From Patescibacteria group bacterium (GTDB lineage: Bacteria > Patescibacteriota > Patescibacteriia > UBA11705 > JABHMO01): 64,000 bases of DNA. A program made the translations under genes and the position numbers. This document shows positions 1,107 through 59,621 of this stretch, one piece after another; the stretch's first letter is position 1, and each line of letters starts with the position of its first letter. The stretch is from NCBI GenBank assembly GCA_018818405.1, contig JAHIRY010000038.1:35449-99448 (forward strand), written 5' to 3'. Under the pieces are notes generated by a model. It was not told where the DNA came from, searched no databases, and saw only the letters and a program-made list of their open reading frames with translations.

Positions 1107-2090
1107 ATGGAAGTCGAACTGTTTCTCGATCAAATTACCAGAGGAATTGAAAGCTACCATGGCGCGAGTCTGCGCCAACTTGATCTTTCAATGCACAAAG
1201 CATTCGATGGCGGTGACGCAGTGCCGGACGAATTGTATGTGGTTGATTTTCCCGGTCTCGGATTGGGACAAGATCTCCTGCTCAACCGCCAACTGTGCGG
1301 CCTGCCTAAACTTCTGAGAATTCAAAAAACAGCGCACACCATGATGAGAACATTCGCGCTGTTTCATCCGGAATTTTTCACCGGTTCGAATCTCTCAGTC
1401 GCACAATTCGTCATTCACTGGGGCGGTCGGCCGATGGATCTGACAATCGCCAACCCGCCGCTGTTCCCGCAGATGATCGATACCTGTCTGCTCAAAATCA
1501 GACGATTTCCACAAGGAGATGATTGGAGAGGAGAACTGCAAGACAAAATCGGCGATTGGTATCAAGACGATCTTTATATCGCGGCTGAAGAATGCTCCGC
1601 ATCCGGCGCGTCATTCGAGTGCTTCGCTGAACTGGCATTTCAGAATCATGTGCCGAAAACGCTGATCGTCTTCCCTGTCTGCTGCAGTCTGGAAGGAATT
1701 CAGCGGCTGCACAAAGTTTGCCTCAAATACAATGTGCGGCTAATCGCTCTGCTCAATTCCGCACTCATCCAAGTAAACCCGATCGGAACAACGCTGCACA
1801 AGACCGATCTCGGTCTTCTGCCGAAAACAGTTGTCACTCGCGAATTTTACGATTTGCTTGATAAGCGATACCAAGGAACTCCGATCTGCTGGGTGGGAGA
1901 CATGGGCGAGAGCATTCACAAAATGCCAAAGCATATTCGAGACATGCTCGCCGATATGCGCAAACTGCAATTTGATCCAAAAAAAGAAAACTGGAAACTC
2001 TGGCCAACCTTCATCAGGGAAGCGCAATTCCAAACAGAACTCCTGCAAAAAGATCCGGAAACATATCGATACTTTCAGGAAATTTTCTAA
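1107..2090 (+). CDS. hypothetical protein (327 aa), GC-rich, divergent from the 29..916 gene
   Basis: strong SD AAGGAGG 7 nt upstream; long ORF; no recognisable domain. Confidence 0.6.
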   Translation: MEVELFLDQITRGIESYHGASLRQLDLSMHKAFDGGDAVPDELYVVDFPGLGLGQDLLLNRQLCGLPKLLRIQKTAHTMMRTFALFHPEFFTGSNLSVAQFVIHWGGRPMDLTIANPPLFPQMIDTCLLKIRRFPQGDDWRGELQDKIGDWYQDDLYIAAEECSASGASFECFAELAFQNHVPKTLIVFPVCCSLEGIQRLHKVCLKYNVRLIALLNSALIQVNPIGTTLHKTDLGLLPKTVVTREFYDLLDKRYQGTPICWVGDMGESIHKMPKHIRDMLADMRKLQFDPKKENWKLWPTFIREAQFQTELLQKDPETYRYFQEIF

Positions 2091-8747: not shown

Positions 8748-8802
8748 ATAAGCGAGATAAGTTTATCCCGCCCGCGGCGGGGCGAGTTAAGTGTATCATT
8801 CA
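8748..8802. repeat. dispersed repeat family R3, copy 1 (AGCGAGATAAG...GTTAAGTTTATCCCGCCC)
   Basis: shares ~45 nt with 42398-42485 and a partial/inverted copy at 11329-11423. Confidence 0.7.
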
Positions 8803-11328: not shown

Positions 11329-11423
11329 ACGAAGCGTTAAAGCGAGAAAGCAAGAAAGCAAGTTAAGCTTGTAAGCTCGCGAGCAAAATACGTTAATTCT
11401 TCGTACAATGCTTATCTCGCTAA
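11329..11423. repeat. repeat family R3, copy 2, with an internal inverted AGCGAGATAAGCA arm
   Basis: AGCGAGAAAGCAAGAAAGCAAGTTAAGC ... TGCTTATCTCGCT. Confidence 0.6.
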
Positions 11424-12605
11424 TTACGGCGCCATCTCCCGTAATTTTTTTATTGCCACGGTCAGAGATTTGATAAAAGTATTTACTTCAACTTCAGTAT
11501 TATCTTTTCCCAACGAGATACGAATACTGCCATGCGCCCATTTCGGCTGAACGCCCATGGCGGTCAGCACATGCGACGGTTCCAACGAACCGGATGAACA
11601 CGCGGATCCGGTGGAAACCGCAACGCCATCCATATCGAGAAGCATGAGAATGCTCTCTCCTTCGGCATTTTGAAAACTCACATTGATAATATTCGGCAAT
11701 TGAAATTCTCCTTTGCCGTTGAATCTCACATTTTCGAATTTTTCCAATTCACCGGCAATTTTACTTTTTATTTTTTTTATTTTCTGAATATTTTTTTCCT
11801 GTTCATCAGCCACCAGTTCGACCGCTTTGCCAAGACCGACAATCCCCGGGACATTCAATGTTCCCGGCCGCAAACTGTATTCCTGATGTCCGCCGAAAGC
11901 GAGCGGCTCAAACTTTATTCCTCTTTTTGCAAACAATCCGCCGATTCCTTTCGGTCCGAATATTTTGTGTCCGGAAAAAGAAAGAAAATCAACGCCCAGC
12001 CAATTTACCTGGCAGGGCAAATAATTAAAAGCTTGCACTGCGTCAACATGAAAATAAATCGGCAAACCTTTTTCTCCGCGCCGGTCTCTTTCAACTTTTA
12101 TGATTTCGCTGATTTCTCTGATCGGTTGAATTGATCCGACTTCATTATTGGCGTACATAATGGAAATCAAAACGGTATTCGGCTGAATCAATTCTTTCAA
12201 TTTTTCCAATTTCACAACGCCCGCCGAGTCAACTTCAACAAAACCAGCTTCAATCCCCTCTTTTTTTGAAATCGTTTTAAATACTTCCAAAACAGAAGGA
12301 TGTTCTATTTTCGAAGTGATGATATGCAAATTGTCTTGTGTCTGCAAAAGTGAATTTATAATTCCCTGAATCGCCAAATTATTACTCTCGGTAGCGCCGG
12401 AAGTAAAAATAATTTCCTGCGTTTCACAACTCAAATAATTGGCGATTTTTTCTCTCGCATCATCAATCGCGCTCAGCGCTGATTGTCCCGACGAATGCGC
12501 TGAATTGGGATTGCCGAAATTTTCCTGAAAAAACGGCAACATTTCCTGCAACACGCGAGGATCGACTTTTGTTGTCGCTGAATTATCGTAATAAATTTCT
12601 TTCAT
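11424..12605 (-). CDS. iscS: cysteine desulfurase (NifS/IscS class)
   Basis: PLP-lysine region SGHKIFGPKGIGGL, conserved C-terminal active-site Cys loop. Confidence 0.9.
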   Translation of the reverse strand: MKEIYYDNSATTKVDPRVLQEMLPFFQENFGNPNSAHSSGQSALSAIDDAREKIANYLSCETQEIIFTSGATESNNLAIQGIINSLLQTQDNLHIITSKIEHPSVLEVFKTISKKEGIEAGFVEVDSAGVVKLEKLKELIQPNTVLISIMYANNEVGSIQPIREISEIIKVERDRRGEKGLPIYFHVDAVQAFNYLPCQVNWLGVDFLSFSGHKIFGPKGIGGLFAKRGIKFEPLAFGGHQEYSLRPGTLNVPGIVGLGKAVELVADEQEKNIQKIKKIKSKIAGELEKFENVRFNGKGEFQLPNIINVSFQNAEGESILMLLDMDGVAVSTGSACSSGSLEPSHVLTAMGVQPKWAHGSIRISLGKDNTEVEVNTFIKSLTVAIKKLREMAP

Positions 12606-13330: not shown

Positions 13331-13420
13331 ATTTTGTTGATTAATTAATGAATTTATAAATGCGACTAGCCAATAATTTATTCCAGGCTACATGATTTAC
13401 TGTTCTATTACTGATTTACG

Positions 13421-13540
13421 CAATTTCGAATTTAGGATTTAATTGAATTCTAGGCGCAAGATTTTGCGCCTCTACGAAATTCAAAATTTTAAATTGTGCT
13501 CCCTGCCAAGTGCTCTTTGCTCCCTGCTCATTGCTCGCTG
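13421..13540. repeat. composite structured intergenic repeat, copy 1 (nested hairpins plus CT-rich GCTCCCTGC tail) inserted between iscR and iscU
   Basis: near-identical TTTCGAATTTAGGATTTAATTGAATTCTAGGCGCAAGATTTTGCGCC and TGCTCCCTGC blocks at 39203-39345. Confidence 0.75.
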
Positions 13541-13574
13541 AAACCAAACTTTCAACTAACACTATATTCTAACC

Positions 13575-14027: not shown

Positions 14028-14078
14028 AATTCGCCCGGCAACAGTTGTTGCCGGGCTCGGTTTTTTTCTACAGCTCCG
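14028..14078. terminator. intrinsic terminator after prs (bidirectional form)
   Basis: A7, GCCCGGCAACA-GT-TGTTGCCGGGC hairpin, T7. Confidence 0.65.
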
Positions 14079-15081
14079 GATCAATGTCATCATAAAGCTT
14101 GCGCTTGTATGCTTCCAATGAACCGCCATCATGAATGATTTGAATCGCGTCAGCAAAGTATCTCATTGCCGAAAGAACTCGAAGTTTCGGAATTCTCTTT
14201 TCCGCGGGAATGGGAATCGTATCCATGAAAATAACTTCCTTGACCAAAGGATGCTCTTGCAACTTTCTCAAATTTGCCAGATTGGTCAAAACAGGATGCG
14301 TCACCGCGATTCGCAAAGAAGCCAATCCCTGTTCCGCTAAAAAATCGGCGGAAACGAGAATTGTCCCCAAACTCATCGCCTCATCATCAAACATCCAGCC
14401 GTGCTTGCCCTTGACCTCGCCGATCATTGCCACAGGCACCGCCTTTTCCGAGTCATCATAGCGCCGTTTATCAATAATCGCGATCGGAATTTTCAACATG
14501 CTGGCAATGGGACCGGCATGCTTCCCTTCATTGATATCCGGAGCAATAACCACCGAATCGGTCAAATCATAATTGAGAATAATTTCTCGAGAAAAAATTG
14601 CTTTGGAGCGAAGAGTTTCCACTTTGCACTTGCCTTCGTCGAAAAACCCATTTATTTGCAAAAAATGAGGATCCATCAAAAGAACGCCTTGCGCTCCCGC
14701 CTCTTGCAACAAATCCGCAAAAAGTTTGGCTCCGAGAGTTGATCGCGGATGATCCTTTTTGTCGCTTCGAATATATGGCATATACGGAAGAACCGCAATA
14801 ATCCGTTCAGAGCCATTGTCACGCAAAGTTCGAAGAAGACAGAGCAACTCGAGGATATGCTCGCTCACATTCGGCGACTGCGTCTGAATAACGAAACAAG
14901 TAAACCCGCGGACATTTTTTTTGACATCCACCAAAAAATTTCCATTGGAAAACAATTTGATTTGCGGGCTGTCCGGCGGTCCATCTGTCGGCTCTTCCAG
15001 CGGCACGCACAGTTGGCGCGCCACCATTCTGGCAAATTCGATATGCGAACTGCCAGAGAAAAGTCTGATTCCGTGCGACAT
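14068..15081 (-). CDS. prs: ribose-phosphate pyrophosphokinase
   Basis: N-terminal LFSGSS, RIIAVLPYMPY, divergent PRPP loop MFDDEAMSLGT; length 337 aa. Confidence 0.8.
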   Translation of the reverse strand: MSHGIRLFSGSSHIEFARMVARQLCVPLEEPTDGPPDSPQIKLFSNGNFLVDVKKNVRGFTCFVIQTQSPNVSEHILELLCLLRTLRDNGSERIIAVLPYMPYIRSDKKDHPRSTLGAKLFADLLQEAGAQGVLLMDPHFLQINGFFDEGKCKVETLRSKAIFSREIILNYDLTDSVVIAPDINEGKHAGPIASMLKIPIAIIDKRRYDDSEKAVPVAMIGEVKGKHGWMFDDEAMSLGTILVSADFLAEQGLASLRIAVTHPVLTNLANLRKLQEHPLVKEVIFMDTIPIPAEKRIPKLRVLSAMRYFADAIQIIHDGGSLEAYKRKLYDDIDPEL

Positions 15082-15200
15082 GATTTGTCCCTCCTTTTGC
15101 TGCGGAAATCCGCTTAAATTTTAACGCTAATCATTCATCGTGTCAAAAAAAAACGCCCGATTGTGGACAGTTTTGAAAAAATTAAATTAACCACTTATTT

Positions 15201-15331
15201 TACCTGTCAAACGGGGAGGAAAGAGATTGAGAGATTGAGAGATTCAGTAAATGAATAATTTTAGAACTAAAAATTACTCAATCTCTCTATCTCTAAATCT
15301 CTCAGTATCTCAATCCCACCTTCCGTCAAAC
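15201..15331. mobile_element. MITE-like hairpin element (~110 bp) with arms built from GAGATT hexamer repeats, flanked by a 7-bp direct repeat GTCAAAC
   Basis: GAGATTGAGAGATTGAGAGATTCAGTA ... TACTCAATCTCTCTATCTCTAAATCTC inverted arms; GTCAAAC at both ends. Confidence 0.45.
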
Positions 15332-16221
15332 TATTTGGAAATCAACAAAATCCGCTTTTGTCCTTCCAATATTTTCACGGCCTTTTCCGAGTCGCTCAGA
15401 TTAGACTCGTACATGCGGATCGGCGAACCGTTTTTGTCCGGCGGCAAGTCATGAATCGCGTTCATTATAACATCTTGCTTAAATTTAAAACCGTTTCCCT
15501 TTGTGCGAGTGCCCGGATCATTGGTAATAAAATATTTGCCGTCATATCCGCGAATTACCAAATAATGAAAAATCGGCCCGAGGCCGGAATAATACGGTCC
15601 ATTAAGCTCTCTGCCGGCGGTCGGAACAATCACAATCGAATTATCAGCCAATGCTTTTTTAATGGAATCAATGGAAACATCATCTCTTATCTCCGCTTTC
15701 AATCCGAAATATTCTTCAGCCATTTTTTTCGATTCATCCAAAGTCGTATCAGTATATGCTCCGAACATTTTCTTTTCCCACTCAACCAATTTTAAAATTT
15801 CCGTATTTGCAACCGATTCTGAAACTTCTTTTTCTCCCTTAAAATATTTGGCCGCTGAAATCAAGGCCGCTTCTTCGCAAGCTTCCTGATACGGCAATCC
15901 CCAATCGCCGGTCGGAGCTTGAGATACGAAAGGAGCTTTCAAATCCAAACTTTTCGGCAAATCCGATTCATCATCTTGATTCATATTTGCAATATTCGCG
16001 ACAGTTTCTCTGATCGGTTCTGTCACTTTCGCCACGGCTTCAACCGCTTTTTTTACAACAGAAGTTTCCTCTTTTTCCACAGCGACAACCGCGGCTTCTT
16101 CCTTCACTGCGGGAATATTATCAATCTTTGTTTCATTCAAATCAAAATCTGCTTCACTCGTACATCCGGAAAGCAAAAATGCTAAAATTAGAATTCCCAG
16201 GATTGAAATTTCTTTATTCAT
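15331..16221 (-). CDS. lipoprotein with papain-like C39-like peptidase domain (ORF to 16269; likely start is MNKEISIL, lipobox LLSGC)
   Basis: QAPTGDWGLPYQEACEEAAL Gln/Cys block and downstream His/Asn-Asp; signal peptide plus lipobox. Confidence 0.7.
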   Translation of the reverse strand: MNKEISILGILILAFLLSGCTSEADFDLNETKIDNIPAVKEEAAVVAVEKEETSVVKKAVEAVAKVTEPIRETVANIANMNQDDESDLPKSLDLKAPFVSQAPTGDWGLPYQEACEEAALISAAKYFKGEKEVSESVANTEILKLVEWEKKMFGAYTDTTLDESKKMAEEYFGLKAEIRDDVSIDSIKKALADNSIVIVPTAGRELNGPYYSGLGPIFHYLVIRGYDGKYFITNDPGTRTKGNGFKFKQDVIMNAIHDLPPDKNGSPIRMYESNLSDSEKAVKILEGQKRILLISK

Positions 16222-16262
16222 ATTGGATAATATACAACATTTCGTATATTTGCACAAATCGC

Positions 16263-16291
16263 TTGACATTTGGGAATATTTTGGATAAACT
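16263..16291 (+). promoter_or_regulatory. putative promoter TTGACA-17-TAAACT for rpmA
   Basis: hexamers seen 35 nt upstream of rpmA. Confidence 0.4.
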
Positions 16292-16618: not shown

Positions 16619-16680
16619 ACAGAGTTAAATCTCTGTTTTTTGTTTGACAAAAAAATGCGGGAGAAAATGTTATTTCTCCC
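16619..16680. terminator. two back-to-back intrinsic terminators, one per strand
   Basis: ACAGAG-TTAAAT-CTCTGT plus T-run for rpmA; A-run plus GCGGGAGA-loop-TCTCCCGC for the minus-strand gene. Confidence 0.6.
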
Positions 16681-16689
16681 GCGTATTAC

Positions 16690-23030: not shown

Positions 23031-23250
23031 CTACGACGACAGCAGACTCTGAATCGAGTTCAGAGTGACAGGTGTGGGGCGCGAATTACTAACAATTGCA
23101 ATGAACCTCGAATAGTTGCCACAGTTTCGCAAATACGCAAATGCACAGTTACTCTTACTCCGTCGTCGGCTCTCCCATCGTCACTCTGAACTCGATTCAG
23201 AGTCTGCTTCCGGTTCGCTTAGTCGATTCGCTTACAATGTCGTCATCGCG
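23031..23250. repeat. palindromic repeat family R4, units a (inverted) and b (direct) (core CGTCACTCTGAACTCGATTCAGAGTCT plus ~45-nt tail)
   Basis: 23045-23069 and 23178-23250 are mutually inverted copies; core is itself a 9-bp-stem hairpin. Confidence 0.8.
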
Positions 23251-23267
23251 CAACAACTCACATACCG

Positions 23268-23573
23268 CTAATTCCACGTTGCGCTCAAATCTTCAAAATT
23301 AGGATTTTCCTTTTTTATCAAATCAATTTTCCACGGCCGATGCCATCGCTTCAATTGTTTTTCTCTGGCAATGGCAGAATACACATCCGTAAAATCCTCG
23401 TAATAAACTAATTTTTGTAAACAATAACGAGCGCTGAATGAATTTGGATTGTATTTATTTTTGTGTTCCCACAAACGCCGCTCAACATTGTTCGTCACGC
23501 CAATATAAAAAACCGTATTCCTTGTGTTTGTAATAATATATACATAATAATTACGTTGAACAAATTTTCGCAT
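23268..23573 (-). CDS. small GIY-YIG nuclease (YhbQ/COG2827-like)
   Basis: YVYIITNTRNTVFYIGVTNNVERRLWEH GIY-YIG core; 101 aa; paralog of 33838. Confidence 0.8.
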   Translation of the reverse strand: MRKFVQRNYYVYIITNTRNTVFYIGVTNNVERRLWEHKNKYNPNSFSARYCLQKLVYYEDFTDVYSAIAREKQLKRWHRPWKIDLIKKENPNFEDLSATWN

Positions 23574-23676
23574 ATCATTTTTTAAATCATGCTAACTAAT
23601 ACTTTCAGAATAGCACAATTTTTTTTCGACCGGAATAAACAACGAAACAATCGCGCCTTCGTTCAGCGAAACTTCC

Positions 23677-23905
23677 GACGCTAACAGACTCTGAATCGAG
23701 TTCAGAGTGACGGGGTGCGGCGCGTCGTCTCATCATCATCATGATTATCCTCGTCACTCTGAACTCGATTCAGAGTCTCCCTCCGGTTTCACCTAGTCGG
23801 TTCCGCTACGACAGCGTCCGCCCGCCCCTCCTCATCGTCACTCTGAACTCGATTCAGAGTCTCTTTTCGGTTTCGCTTAGTCGATTCGACTGCAACGGCG
23901 TCGCG
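23677..23905. repeat. repeat family R4, units c (inverted), d and e (direct, tandem)
   Basis: 23677-23712, 23749-23819, 23833-23905 share the CGTCACTCTGAACTCGATTCAGAGTCT core and tail. Confidence 0.8.
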
Positions 23906-24045: not shown

Positions 24046-24756
24046 ATGAAGACGAGAACCATGTTTCTCTGTGTCCTGTTCCTTTTTTTGACAACCGTAG
24101 CCGCATCCTGCGGCGAAGACCCCACCAACGCGCCGGGCGAAGGCGAAGGCGAAGGCGAAGGCGAGGGTGAAGGCGAGGGCGAAGGCGAAGGCGAGGGCGA
24201 AGGCGAGCAGCTCGGCTCGCTTACCGTCACCTCCGCGCCGCACGACGGCGCGCAGATCATCATGGATGGCGTGGACACCGGATTCGTCACCCCGCACACG
24301 TTCGACGAGATCAGTGTGGGACGGCACGAGGTCGAGCTCAAGCTCGACGGCCGGATCCAGGCCTACATCCCGCAGGAGGTCGTCCTGACCTCCGGCAAGG
24401 AAGACAGCACCGTGCCGCCAAGCGCCACGGCCGAAATCTTTCTGTATCTGGATCTGACGGGAAAATGGTATGAAGCGGAAATAAATCGGACGACCGAAGC
24501 AGTGGTTTTCCCAAGTGCCAGACTCCAACAACCGGAAATCTCCTGCCCAACCACGGAGATGGCGGCAGGCAAATTTCCCCTATACAACACACTGTGCATC
24601 GAGAGAGACGACTCTCTCTCTCTCTGCAAAGACCATGCCAGCGACTGTTATGGAGCCGAAGTCCGCGGCTCCGTTCAGGAAAACGGCACGAAGATCGAAG
24701 TCACAGATTTCTTTTTTTCTCCGCCGAGGGTACTACACTACACTCTGGTGCAGTGA
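24046..24756 (+). CDS. PEGA-domain lipoprotein paralog with (GE)13 low-complexity linker, strikingly GC-rich (~60%)
   Basis: signal plus lipobox AASC; LTVTSAPHDGAQIIMDGVDTGFVTPHTF aligns colinearly with the 22270 protein; SD AAGGAGG. Confidence 0.75.
   Translation: MKTRTMFLCVLFLFLTTVAASCGEDPTNAPGEGEGEGEGEGEGEGEGEGEGEGEQLGSLTVTSAPHDGAQIIMDGVDTGFVTPHTFDEISVGRHEVELKLDGRIQAYIPQEVVLTSGKEDSTVPPSATAEIFLYLDLTGKWYEAEINRTTEAVVFPSARLQQPEISCPTTEMAAGKFPLYNTLCIERDDSLSLCKDHASDCYGAEVRGSVQENGTKIEVTDFFFSPPRVLHYTLVQ
24136..24207 (+). repeat. (GGCGAA/GGCGAG)n hexanucleotide tandem repeat encoding (GE)n
   Basis: about 11-12 tandem hexamers seen directly. Confidence 0.85.
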
Positions 24757-34160: not shown

Positions 34161-34311
34161 GTCGCACTTCGGCAGGCTCAGTGTGACATGAATTTAACTG
34201 TCACACTGAGGCTAAAAGCCTGTCCCGAGTCGCATCGAGCGGAAGCGTGCTATCATCGTCATCGCAATAACTGTCACACTGAGCCTGCCGAAGTGCCGCT
34301 TCGCTTAACAC
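34161..34311. repeat. repeat family R5: one inverted and two direct units (GTCACACTGAGCCTGCCGAAGTGC...TTCGCTTAACAC)
   Basis: 34161-34187 (inverted), 34200-34222, 34273-34311; 11-bp stem between the first two. Confidence 0.8.
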
Positions 34312-36180: not shown

Positions 36181-36238
36181 CGGAAATGTGGAATTGTAAG
36201 GGTTCAACATGTTGAACCCTTACAATTCCACATTTCCG
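36181..36238. repeat. 58-bp perfect palindrome (29-bp arms) between prfB and rsmA
   Basis: CGGAAATGTGGAATTGTAAGGGTTCAACA|TGTTGAACCCTTACAATTCCACATTTCCG verified base by base. Confidence 0.9.
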
Positions 36239-39062: not shown

Positions 39063-39202
39063 ATTATATTTTTATTTCGAATTTCATTTTGAGGTCGCTA
39101 ATTTACCGCCGCAGCGTGCGGGGTTCCGCTCGCAGCGGGACGAATGTCACAAATATTACGAATTATCCTTTGCAACTAAAAAATTTATAATTTATTATTT
39201 TA

Positions 39203-39345
39203 GTATTTCGAATTTAGAATTTTATTTAATTGAATTCCAGGCGCAAGATTTTGCGCCGGATTAGGCGGGTGCAACCCGCCTCTACAAAAATTGTTACATG
39301 CTTCATGTTATGTGCTCCTTGCTCCCTGCTCCTTTCTCCCTGCCA
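39203..39345. repeat. composite structured intergenic repeat, copy 2 (includes the R1 hairpin module)
   Basis: same blocks as 13421-13540 plus the AGGCGGGTGCAACCCGCCTCTACA module. Confidence 0.75.
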
Positions 39346-39348
39346 ACG

Positions 39349-40035
39349 CTACCGAACCCTGCAAACCCCGAACCAATCTTCAAATTTCCGACAGATTTCC
39401 TGCAATTGTCTTTTCGTATAAATATTCTCACTGATAAAATCCATATTTACCAGCTTTACCGCCGGACGGAATTGCTGGAGAAAAAATTTGTCAGCGCCTT
39501 TTACCTGCTCCGCCATTGCGACAATGTCATCTTCGGAATGAAGGCGCGGCAAAACAGTGGAACGAAATTCATGAGGCAATCCGCTCTCTTTTATTATTAT
39601 AACACTTTTCTTGATTGAATCTAAATCAACTTTGCGGCCGATAATTTGCGGATACTTTTCCCACGGAAATTTTATATCCATCGCCAGATAATCAACCAGC
39701 TTTGCCTTTACAAGATTTTCCAACACTTCCGGCCGGCTGCCGTTGGTGTCGATTTTTATGAGATAATCCAAATCTTTTAATTTTCCGACAAAAGAAATCA
39801 GATCATTCTGCACTGTCGGCTCTCCGCCGGTAATGCAAACCGCGTCAGTCAAATTTTTTCTTTTTTTCAAAAAATTCAAAACCGTTGACACCGGAATCAC
39901 CCGCGAAATTCCCTTGACAATTTCCGGATTATGACAAAAAGAGCAGCGAAAATTACACCCGATGGTGAAGATTGTCGCTGCCACTTTGTCCGGATAATCA
40001 ATGAGAGTTGTCTTCTGGAGTCCCCCGATTAACAT
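39349..40035 (-). CDS. nrdG: anaerobic ribonucleotide reductase activating protein (radical SAM)
   Basis: CNFRCSFCHNPE CxxxCxxC radical-SAM cluster; adjacent to nrdD. Confidence 0.8.
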   Translation of the reverse strand: MLIGGLQKTTLIDYPDKVAATIFTIGCNFRCSFCHNPEIVKGISRVIPVSTVLNFLKKRKNLTDAVCITGGEPTVQNDLISFVGKLKDLDYLIKIDTNGSRPEVLENLVKAKLVDYLAMDIKFPWEKYPQIIGRKVDLDSIKKSVIIIKESGLPHEFRSTVLPRLHSEDDIVAMAEQVKGADKFFLQQFRPAVKLVNMDFISENIYTKRQLQEICRKFEDWFGVCRVR

Positions 40036-42397: not shown

Positions 42398-42485
42398 TAA
42401 GATAGTAAGCGAGATAAGCAAGAAAGAGAGATAAGCAAGTTAAGTTTATCCCGCCCTCGGTGGAACGAGTTAAGTTATAATTCGC
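42398..42485. repeat. repeat family R3, copy 3
   Basis: AGCGAGATAAGCAAGAAAGAGAGATAAGCAAGTTAAGTTTATCCCGCCCTCGG...GAGTTAAGT. Confidence 0.7.
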
Positions 42486-47486: not shown

Positions 47487-47526
47487 ACAATATTTAAAAT
47501 AAAAATTAATTCGCAATGAATTTTTA

Positions 47527-47669
47527 TCGTTTCATGGCGGTGTAGAGACGCATTGCAATGCGTCGCTACATCGCCATGAAGCGATGACGGCGGCGTGTGT
47601 TTTGTCGCGACAATATACGGCGCGGCGGTAAGTAGCGGCGGGTCTAGACCCGCCGCTACTTACCGCCGC
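47527..47669. repeat. GC-rich nested palindromes: a 9-bp outer stem enclosing an 18-bp perfect palindrome, plus a separate 48-bp perfect palindrome
   Basis: TTCATGGCG...GACGCATTGCAATGCGTC...CGCCATGAA; GCGGCGGTAAGTAGCGGCGGGTCT|AGACCCGCCGCTACTTACCGCCGC. Confidence 0.85.
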
Positions 47670-59470: not shown

Positions 59471-59496
59471 TATTTTATTAAAAATGAGAATCCACA

Positions 59497-59621
59497 GGCA
59501 GCGGCGGAGAATTAAGATTAAGATTAAGGAGAAAAATTAAGGAAATAAAAATCCAAGCCCTAATTCTTAATCTTATCCTTATCCCTAATTCTTTCACCGC
59601 AACGGCGCCGGCGGAGAATCG
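59497..59621. mobile_element. second hexamer-repeat hairpin element (TAAGAT-type arms) flanked by an 11-bp direct repeat CGGCGGAGAAT
   Basis: GAGAATTAAGATTAAGATTAAGGAG ... CTAATTCTTAATCTTATCCTTATCCC; direct repeats at 59503-59513 and 59609-59619. Confidence 0.4.

Follow-up and report, generated by a model that had tools for sequence, protein, structure and literature searches.

Introduction

Short tandem repeats with units of 6-9 nt have been little studied in bacterial spacers (PMC4692102). The closest published precedent for the locus described here, a hairpin whose arms are arrays of a short unit, comes from Xanthomonas, where 70-75 convergent pairs of GGGAATC heptamer arrays have stem-loop potential (Rehm et al., 2015, PMC4692102). 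In both systems a G/A/T-rich unit of 7-8 nt is repeated in tandem between genes, and arrays lying close together on opposite strands form pairs that may fold into a stem-loop or a cruciform. The present locus differs from the Xanthomonas arrays in its unit, GAGATTGA, in having no G-quadruplex potential, in the phyla concerned (Patescibacteria and Chloroflexota) and in abundance, as 2 copies were found in ~77 kb compared with the dozens of pairs per genome in Xanthomonas. The cyanobacterial STRR heptamers and the TAACTGA repeats of the Beggiatoaceae are likewise intergenic tandem repeats on the 7-nt scale, with a patchy spread across phyla and a proposed post-transcriptional role, but they are almost always direct (169 direct sets versus 1 indirect set; MacGregor, 2015, PMC4679880), whereas the inverse array that forms a hairpin is the defining feature here.

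The REPIN, a hairpin of ~100 nt made of two inverted repeats, is found without target duplication (Bertels & Rainey, 2011, PMC3116915). The hairpins described below share with REP, BIME, and REPIN elements that they are dispersed, intergenic, imperfect palindromes, often located right after stop codons inside operons. REP arms, however, have a fixed sequence with a GTAG or CGTC tag, while here the arms are arrays with a variable number of units, and neither GTAG nor CGTC was seen on reading the stem base of the copy studied or of the second copy in the same genome. REP hairpins reportedly stabilise the mRNA upstream of them, and those within ~15 nt of a stop codon are said to lower translation. 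Bacterial MITEs such as Correia/NEMIS and ERIC are small, non-coding elements with inverted ends, which are transcribed into mRNA hairpins and are possible targets of RNase III/E. They have a full-length consensus, a duplication of fixed length, and a related IS, none of which was seen here. Rho-independent terminators resemble the hairpin in being stem-loops directly downstream of a gene, but instead of a GC-rich stem of 5-12 bp with an immediate U-run the locus has an A-U-rich stem that is several times longer and lacks a U-tract, and the terminator scan did not call it.

Judged by its sequence, the hairpin is a member of the known class of inverted short-tandem-repeat hairpins: its intergenic arrays of period 8 (2.9 and 4.9 units) lie close together on opposite strands. 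The literature search found no description of GAGATT arrays in a prokaryotic context, and both the link to Chloroflexota and the rule of arm order reported below were unexpected.

Genomic context of the hairpin

The locus was analysed within a stretch of 64,000 nt, referred to as the window. The hairpin sits in a 249-nt spacer (15082-15330), the flanking genes of which are both encoded on the minus strand (Table 1). The CTA beginning at base 15331 represents the TAG stop codon of the minus-strand gene 15331-16269; the right flank of the element, which according to the preliminary description abuts the stop codon of the lipoprotein gene, does so with an overlap of one base. Since the U9 terminator-like structure, the promoter, and the Shine-Dalgarno sequence all follow the hairpin, it is part of the upstream gene's 3′ UTR rather than of the prs leader. 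The position of the prs promoter downstream of the hairpin led us to discard a riboswitch for prs, and it makes a role as prs regulator unlikely. Inside the element a single ORF was listed (15251-15454, plus strand); it runs antisense to the lipoprotein gene and is not a plausible coding region. Two further candidates were rejected, namely a replication origin with iterons, because the sign of the GC skew is constant across the whole window, and a retron or CRISPR, because no reverse transcriptase or cas gene lies nearby.

The nearest homologues of prs are ~50% identical, and the named ones belong to Parcubacteria/Patescibacteria; among the species-representative genomes, a protein-guided scan retrieved no relative of prs. 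Given the low identity of the homologues, the host probably belongs to an isolated lineage of the CPR, of which no close relative has been sequenced.

Table 1. Features of the hairpin locus and the other repeat-armed hairpins of the same genome (window coordinates unless stated otherwise)
Feature	Position	Strand	Remarks
prs, ribose-phosphate pyrophosphokinase	14068..15081	-	Shine-Dalgarno AAGGAGG just upstream
prs promoter-like site, TTGACA-17 nt-TAAAAT	15118..15146	-	11/12 matches
Weak terminator-like A5-stem-U9	15146..15175	-	-7 kcal/mol, z -1.6; ~30 nt downstream of the hairpin
Whole hairpin element, 126 nt	15206..15331	-	Stem starts on the G of the UAG stop of the upstream gene
GTCAAAC, left copy of the 7-nt direct repeat	15206..15212		
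G-rich outer stem segment, GGGGAGGAA	15213..15221	.	Pairs with 15315-15324 (CCCACCTTCC)
Left arm array, AGAGATTG x2.9, perfect, period 8	15222..15244	.	TRF, 100%
Inner AT-rich mini-hairpin, GAATAATTTT / AAAATTACTC	15253..15279	.	7-nt apical loop at 15263-15269
Right arm array, CTCAATCT x4.9, 74% matches	15277..15315	.	TRF; inverse complement of the left unit
GTCAAAC, right copy	15325..15331		One base shared with the stop codon
Upstream gene, 312-aa Peptidase_C39_2 (PF13529), lipoprotein-like N-terminus LLSGC	15331..16269	-	Hairpin in its 3′ UTR
Second GAGATT-armed hairpin	L176 ~12318-12524, ~9.7 kb beyond window position 1		~25 kb from the window copy
Third repeat-armed hairpin, ATTAAG/GATAAG versus CTTAAT hexamers	59495-59605	-	-36.5 kcal/mol, z -4.6 on the minus strand

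Repeat structure and folding

RNA folding, which had been proposed as a check, confirmed a long hairpin between the two co-directional genes. On the minus (gene-sense) strand the 126-nt element folds with -51.4 kcal/mol (z -6.9), and none of 200 shuffled sequences folded as well; the plus strand gave -38.8 kcal/mol (z -4.9). The stem is composed of 49 pairs (17 GC, 27 AU, and 5 GU). The two arms quoted in the preliminary description are indeed imperfect inverse complements (15223-15249 and 15275-15301, 24/27; also called as 29-nt arms with 90% complementarity), but the inverted repeat is longer than stated, as a call with 41-nt arms (15222-15262 and 15270-15310, 78% complementary) was also obtained and the full stem spans 15206-15331. 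The AT-rich loop is present too, and in addition forms a small hairpin of its own (Table 1). The hexamer period ascribed to the arms had to be corrected, since TRF gave a period of 8 and the hexamer GAGATT recurs at a spacing of 8 nt within the arrays. The unit GAGATTGA occurs in three perfect copies in one arm and in about five degenerate copies in the other, and the extra units of the right arm make alternative pairing registers possible, one of which (15225-15247 with 15293-15315) is found in the inverted-repeat listing. When up to two mismatches were allowed, GAGATTGAGAGATT had eight matches in the window versus 1.05 expected, six of which fell at the hairpin locus, and no further GAGAT array occurs in the window.

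Outward, the stem is extended by the clamp GGGGAGG / CCCACCTTCC, the two sides of which resemble a Shine-Dalgarno/anti-Shine-Dalgarno pairing, and reaches both GTCAAAC copies. The latter do stand at the two outer ends of the element, only the left one lies one base off the position given earlier. In the sense RNA this repeat appears as GUUUGAC, and its two copies are paired with one another at six of seven positions if G-U is counted, which allows them to be taken for the stem base. With 4 occurrences versus 7.3 expected, GTCAAAC is not enriched in the window.

Two further assemblies, ENA ERZ27247128 and Logan SRR6514274, contain the hairpin with an identical sequence, which indicates that it is not an assembly artefact. 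Both assemblies represent the same strain (1 mismatch in ~13 kb, 99.99% identity) and are therefore uninformative on variation in unit number. No Rfam family matched at the gathering threshold anywhere in the window; with E-values up to 10 only generic long-hairpin eukaryotic miRNA precursors appeared (best 36.6 bits versus a threshold of 74). A 22-mer query had no match in the viral collection.

Further copies in the same genome

A contig of the JGI sample 3300014656 (L176), which matches the window over 2622 nt with 100% identity and reaches 10 kb past window position 1, carries a second GAGATT-armed hairpin (Table 1). The search for other copies with different flanks that had been suggested earlier was thus successful in the same genome, and many more were found in other genomes (see below). 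The L176 hairpin folds with z -6.3 on the minus and -6.7 on the plus strand of its contig, and it is located 27 nt upstream of the thyA start codon in a spacer of >300 nt, not at a stop codon. Its outer arms are the GAGATT arrays AAAGAGATTGAGAGATTAGGAGATTAAGCGATTGAG and CACTTAATCTCTAAATCTCTCAATCTCGCAATCTCTTT, within which arrays of a GTAATT-type unit are nested as inner arms. Of the four ends of these two copies, three have the sequence (G/A)AAAGAGATTG, and the 12-nt junction GATTGAGTAATT is common to both, while their flanks, interior, and length (126 versus ~205 nt) differ. That the two copies have such similar ends hints at some process of copying, for which purely local slippage does not account. 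Two GAGATT hairpins in the ~77 kb examined are compatible with a density of tens per megabase.

The third repeat-armed hairpin, which is built of other hexamers (Table 1), follows a canonical terminator and precedes the start of the next gene by ~25-30 nt. [quoted passage not shown] The minus strand of the window is its G-rich strand, and composition skew may account for this bias. Because the same G-rich strand is favoured regardless of gene direction and the family has no bias of this kind, neither the sense-strand G-U pairs nor the 12.6 kcal/mol advantage of the sense strand was counted as evidence for a function at the RNA level.

Related hairpins in other genomes

The pattern GAGATWKAGAGATWKAGAGAT was scanned in the species-representative genomes, one genome per species, and matched at least 119 loci, while ~4 would be expected by chance according to our own estimate. 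Among the matches listed, 50 arrays have an inverse array within 60 nt (about 46-50 hairpins) and 120 more are direct only. The array-loop-inverse-array type was confined, among these matches, nearly entirely to Anaerolineae-type Chloroflexota, the carriers listed being Caldilineaceae, Ardenticatenaceae, Anaerolineales, and Litorilinea. The window hairpin is one copy of a dispersed family, which is scattered in its distribution and common in Chloroflexota. The Chloroflexota carriers often have two or three hairpins per 8-kb locus, and, extrapolated roughly from the additional copies at the loci of one assembly, their number would be in the hundreds per Chloroflexota genome. The same loci also hold hairpins made of other 7-9-nt units (GTAATTGG, CGTAAAC, CGGTAAA, and CACAAAGAA), indicating that the design is generic and that GAGATTG is one frequent unit of it. 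Two unit types, GAGATTG and GTAATTG, recur both here and in Chloroflexota. The arms follow an order: the purine-rich arm came first (5′) in 45 of the 50 GAGATT-type hairpins among the matches listed and in 39 of 45 hairpins when all units are considered, an order that reads the same on both DNA strands. Direct GAGAT-type arrays are present in three CPR genomes (Saccharimonadales and Peribacteria), in two of which the array lies ~10-40 nt before a canonical terminator.

A manual count placed 22 of the 30 hairpins that face the 3′-end of a gene within 12 nt of the stop codon, a closeness that is partly forced, as the spacers are short in those genomes. The distance to the next start codon is typically 11-45 nt, which leaves no room for a promoter, thus these hairpins are expected to lie within operon transcripts and to be read through. 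A bias toward gene 3′-ends was considered and rejected, because co-directional, convergent, and divergent spacers accounted for 25, 6, and 4 hairpins, close to the background of 109, 30, and 28. In 21 co-directional cases the sense strand folded better in 10 and worse in 11 (manual tally).

Evolution at orthologous sites

Three pairs of orthologous loci from Chloroflexota allowed the hairpins to be followed at the same site. L046 and L117 (68% identity) both keep a hairpin a few nt after the stop codon of the same gene, in one built from GGAGATT and in the other from CAGATTT with a GAGATTGA array near the apex. In L007 and L076 (75% identity) a GAGATT hairpin occupies the corresponding gene end with different unit counts, and one arm in L076 has been expanded as a 24-nt super-repeat. 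In L088 an array lies two bases past the stop codon, whereas the orthologous L023 has no array, so that gain or loss of arrays occurs as well. The retention of a hairpin at a site where both arms change fits slippage combined with either pairing selection or arm-to-arm correction, and such change in place does not fit the repeated insertion of a fixed element.

L007 also contains, relative to the orthologous L076 site, a GAGATT-flanked insertion of 1.8 kb. It holds a P450-like gene and a gene (1452-2000, minus strand) for what we take to be a 23S-rRNA-intervening-sequence/four-helix-bundle protein. The latter putative gene is bracketed, in the region 1407-2063, by a GAGATT hairpin and further inverse arrays. 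The possibility of a transposase within the insert was rejected, as neither of the two encoded proteins looks like one.

Origin and possible function

Taking these results together, we lean towards the reading that the element belongs to a family of repeat-armed hairpins, has evolved by slippage and acts post-transcriptionally as a stem-loop of a 3′ UTR. It is an intergenic inverted repeat, each arm being a short tandem array of a 7-8-nt unit (GAGATTGA and its complement), and the arms would gain or lose units by replication slippage rather than travel as a classical cut-and-paste MITE, their complementarity apparently being kept by pairing selection or by arm-to-arm template switching. In the mRNA of the lipoprotein/C39 peptidase gene the element would make up part of the 3′ UTR, and it is predicted to form a stem-loop of ~49 pairs, the pairing of which begins at the final G of the UAG stop codon. 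Its most likely action is after transcription, either as a block to 3′-to-5′ exonucleases or as a processing site for a double-strand-specific, RNase III-type enzyme, and processing would set the 3′-end of the mRNA ahead of the weak U9 terminator. As a ribosome at the stop codon must melt the base of the stem, the terminating ribosome may be slowed, and termination or expression of the upstream gene could be dampened. The exonuclease block, the cleavage by RNase III, and the slowing of ribosomes are all proposed by analogy with REP elements and MITE-derived hairpins. The GGAG/GGAGG-like motifs of the G-rich arm and the CUCC-like motifs of the other make an interplay with ribosome binding conceivable.

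The preliminary description called the element MITE-like, with a flank resembling a 7-bp target-site duplication. As a genuine MITE, with GAGATT arrays as terminal inverted repeats, it would have been inserted at GTCAAAC and have duplicated this 7-bp target. The inverted ends, the non-coding sequence, and the length of 126 nt agree with a MITE of ~50-500 bp, the same genome has another copy, the termini of which are similar while its flanks differ, and the 7-bp direct repeat lies exactly at both ends of the window copy, while a flank repeat of at least 7 nt was found in only 1.7% of mismatched pairs. The duplication, however, is not a property of the family: when the flanks of 45 hairpins (that of the window and 44 from other genomes) were compared with mismatched flank pairs, the mean length of the longest direct repeat was 4.13 versus 3.95 nt, only two of the 45, including the window copy, had a repeat of at least 7 nt, and no flanking direct repeat was seen by eye at the L176 copy. 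Moreover, the GUUUGAC pair doubles as stem base in the sense RNA. A conserved core is missing as well, since the two copies in ~77 kb share the terminal arrays and the 12-nt junction only, BLAST of the loop and both flanks of the window element against all fetched loci gave chance matches only, and similarity to these loci was confined to the arrays. No transposase-like product was found among the called genes with Pfam hits adjoining either copy, and the variation of unit number and sequence at orthologous sites points to evolution in place. Considering all this, the small size, the inverted ends, and the second copy are what stands of the proposal, and a genuine MITE seems improbable; a single flanking repeat is insufficient for such a label in annotation. 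The hairpins might instead be a neutral by-product of slippage-prone repeats and palindrome-generating template switches tolerated in spacers, as the high variability of units, unit numbers, and loops, the absence of strand asymmetry and of spacer-type bias in the family, and the array missing from the orthologous L023 site would all allow. We find this rather doubtful, because hairpins persist across 25-32% nucleotide divergence with both arms changing together, the polarity of the arms is strong (purine arm first in 45/50 of the GAGATT-type hairpins among the matches listed and 39/45 of any unit), and the GAGATTG and GTAATTG types recur here and in Chloroflexota. Furthermore, CPR genomes are compact and spare DNA is unusual in them.

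With respect to function, the hairpin had also been suggested to act as a long terminator; it would then terminate the lipoprotein gene without a U-tract and possibly work in both directions. Its place directly after the stop codon with co-directional genes on both sides, the 3′ arm rich in U and C, and the weakness of the only canonical-looking terminator of the spacer (-7 kcal/mol, z -1.6) are in line with this role. Nevertheless, its ~49 pairs are mostly A-U, the stem is followed by AGGUAAAAUAAG instead of a U-run, canonical terminators with a GC stem and a U-run are used elsewhere in the window (e.g. 14033-14056 and 16657-16682), and the Chloroflexota hairpins located 11-45 nt before the next start imply operon read-through, all of which makes an intrinsic terminator very unlikely. 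Least credible of all is a protein-binding site at the DNA level, at which iteron-like octamers or a cruciform would control prs or help to structure the nucleoid: although the octamers lie ~60-185 nt upstream of the predicted -35 hexamer of prs and the family has no strand asymmetry, successive units at a spacing of 8 bp would face different sides of the helix, the family adjoins unrelated genes, and no candidate binding protein is linked to it. A bolder reading, on balance unlikely, would see in these loci an undescribed cross-phylum family of GAGATTG/GTAATTG hairpins in Anaerolineae Chloroflexota and at least one member of the Patescibacteria, actively generated or mobilised without target duplication and standing at stop codons with the purine arm strictly first, in which pairing of a GGAG-like with a CUCC-like arm tunes termination, cistron coupling, or mRNA processing.

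The locus ties the reduced genome of a Patescibacteria member to a hairpin type abundant in Chloroflexota through the same unit. Should such hairpins influence the 3′-ends of mRNAs, or translation where two cistrons meet, they would constitute a REP-like layer of control in lineages about whose post-transcriptional regulation next to nothing is known; if they are neutral, they would still report slippage and palindrome-correcting replication errors in uncultured bacteria.

Additional repeats in the window

Several repeats other than the GAGATT arrays were also noticed. The dispersed repeat GTCACRCTGAGCCTGCCGAAG(TGC) has at least five copies in the window (33837, 34164-34188 (inverted), 34273, 60069, 60121, and 60155) and recurs without mismatch in 52 contigs of many unrelated metagenome samples (loci L124-L175), one of which, L136, contains seven copies, some 43 nt apart. 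No GAGAT array was found in these 52 contigs. The dispersed repeat resembles a widespread REP-like element. The self-complementary 26-mer GACTCTGAATCGAGTTCAGAGTGAC occurs in five copies and in both orientations in the region 23041-23865, where the copies flank a minus-strand ORF (23268-23573, 101 aa); two copies together give long hairpins of very high stability. Perfect or near-perfect palindromes with arms of 24-34 nt, some of them loopless, were found at 36181-36238, 47526-47585, 47622-47669, and 34164-34296; these are unique sequences in spacers of co-directional genes.

A three-copy intergenic module is present at 13415-13550 and 39195-39350 of the window and at 1610-1790 of L177. It consists of a GC hairpin (GGCGGGTGCAACCCGCC and/or GGCGCAAGATTTTGCGCC) and CTCTACAAAAATT, followed by TGCTCCC heptamer arrays, which in the gene sense read CAGGGAGCA / AAGGAGCA and are GGA-rich. 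The module, which had no Rfam match, is a candidate small RNA or regulatory leader. A 45-mer (ATAAGCGAGATAAGTTTATCCCGCC..GGCGAGTTAAGT) occurs twice (8748-8792 and 42431-42475), and the purine-rich tandem units AAGAGAGATAAGCAAGA (x1.9) and AAAGCAAG (x3), which resemble the GAGAT units, lie near it (42407-42439 and 11339-11362). Finally, the hexamer GGCGAA is repeated ~12 times at 24136-24206 inside the ORF 24046-24756, where it encodes a Gly-Glu-rich repeat.
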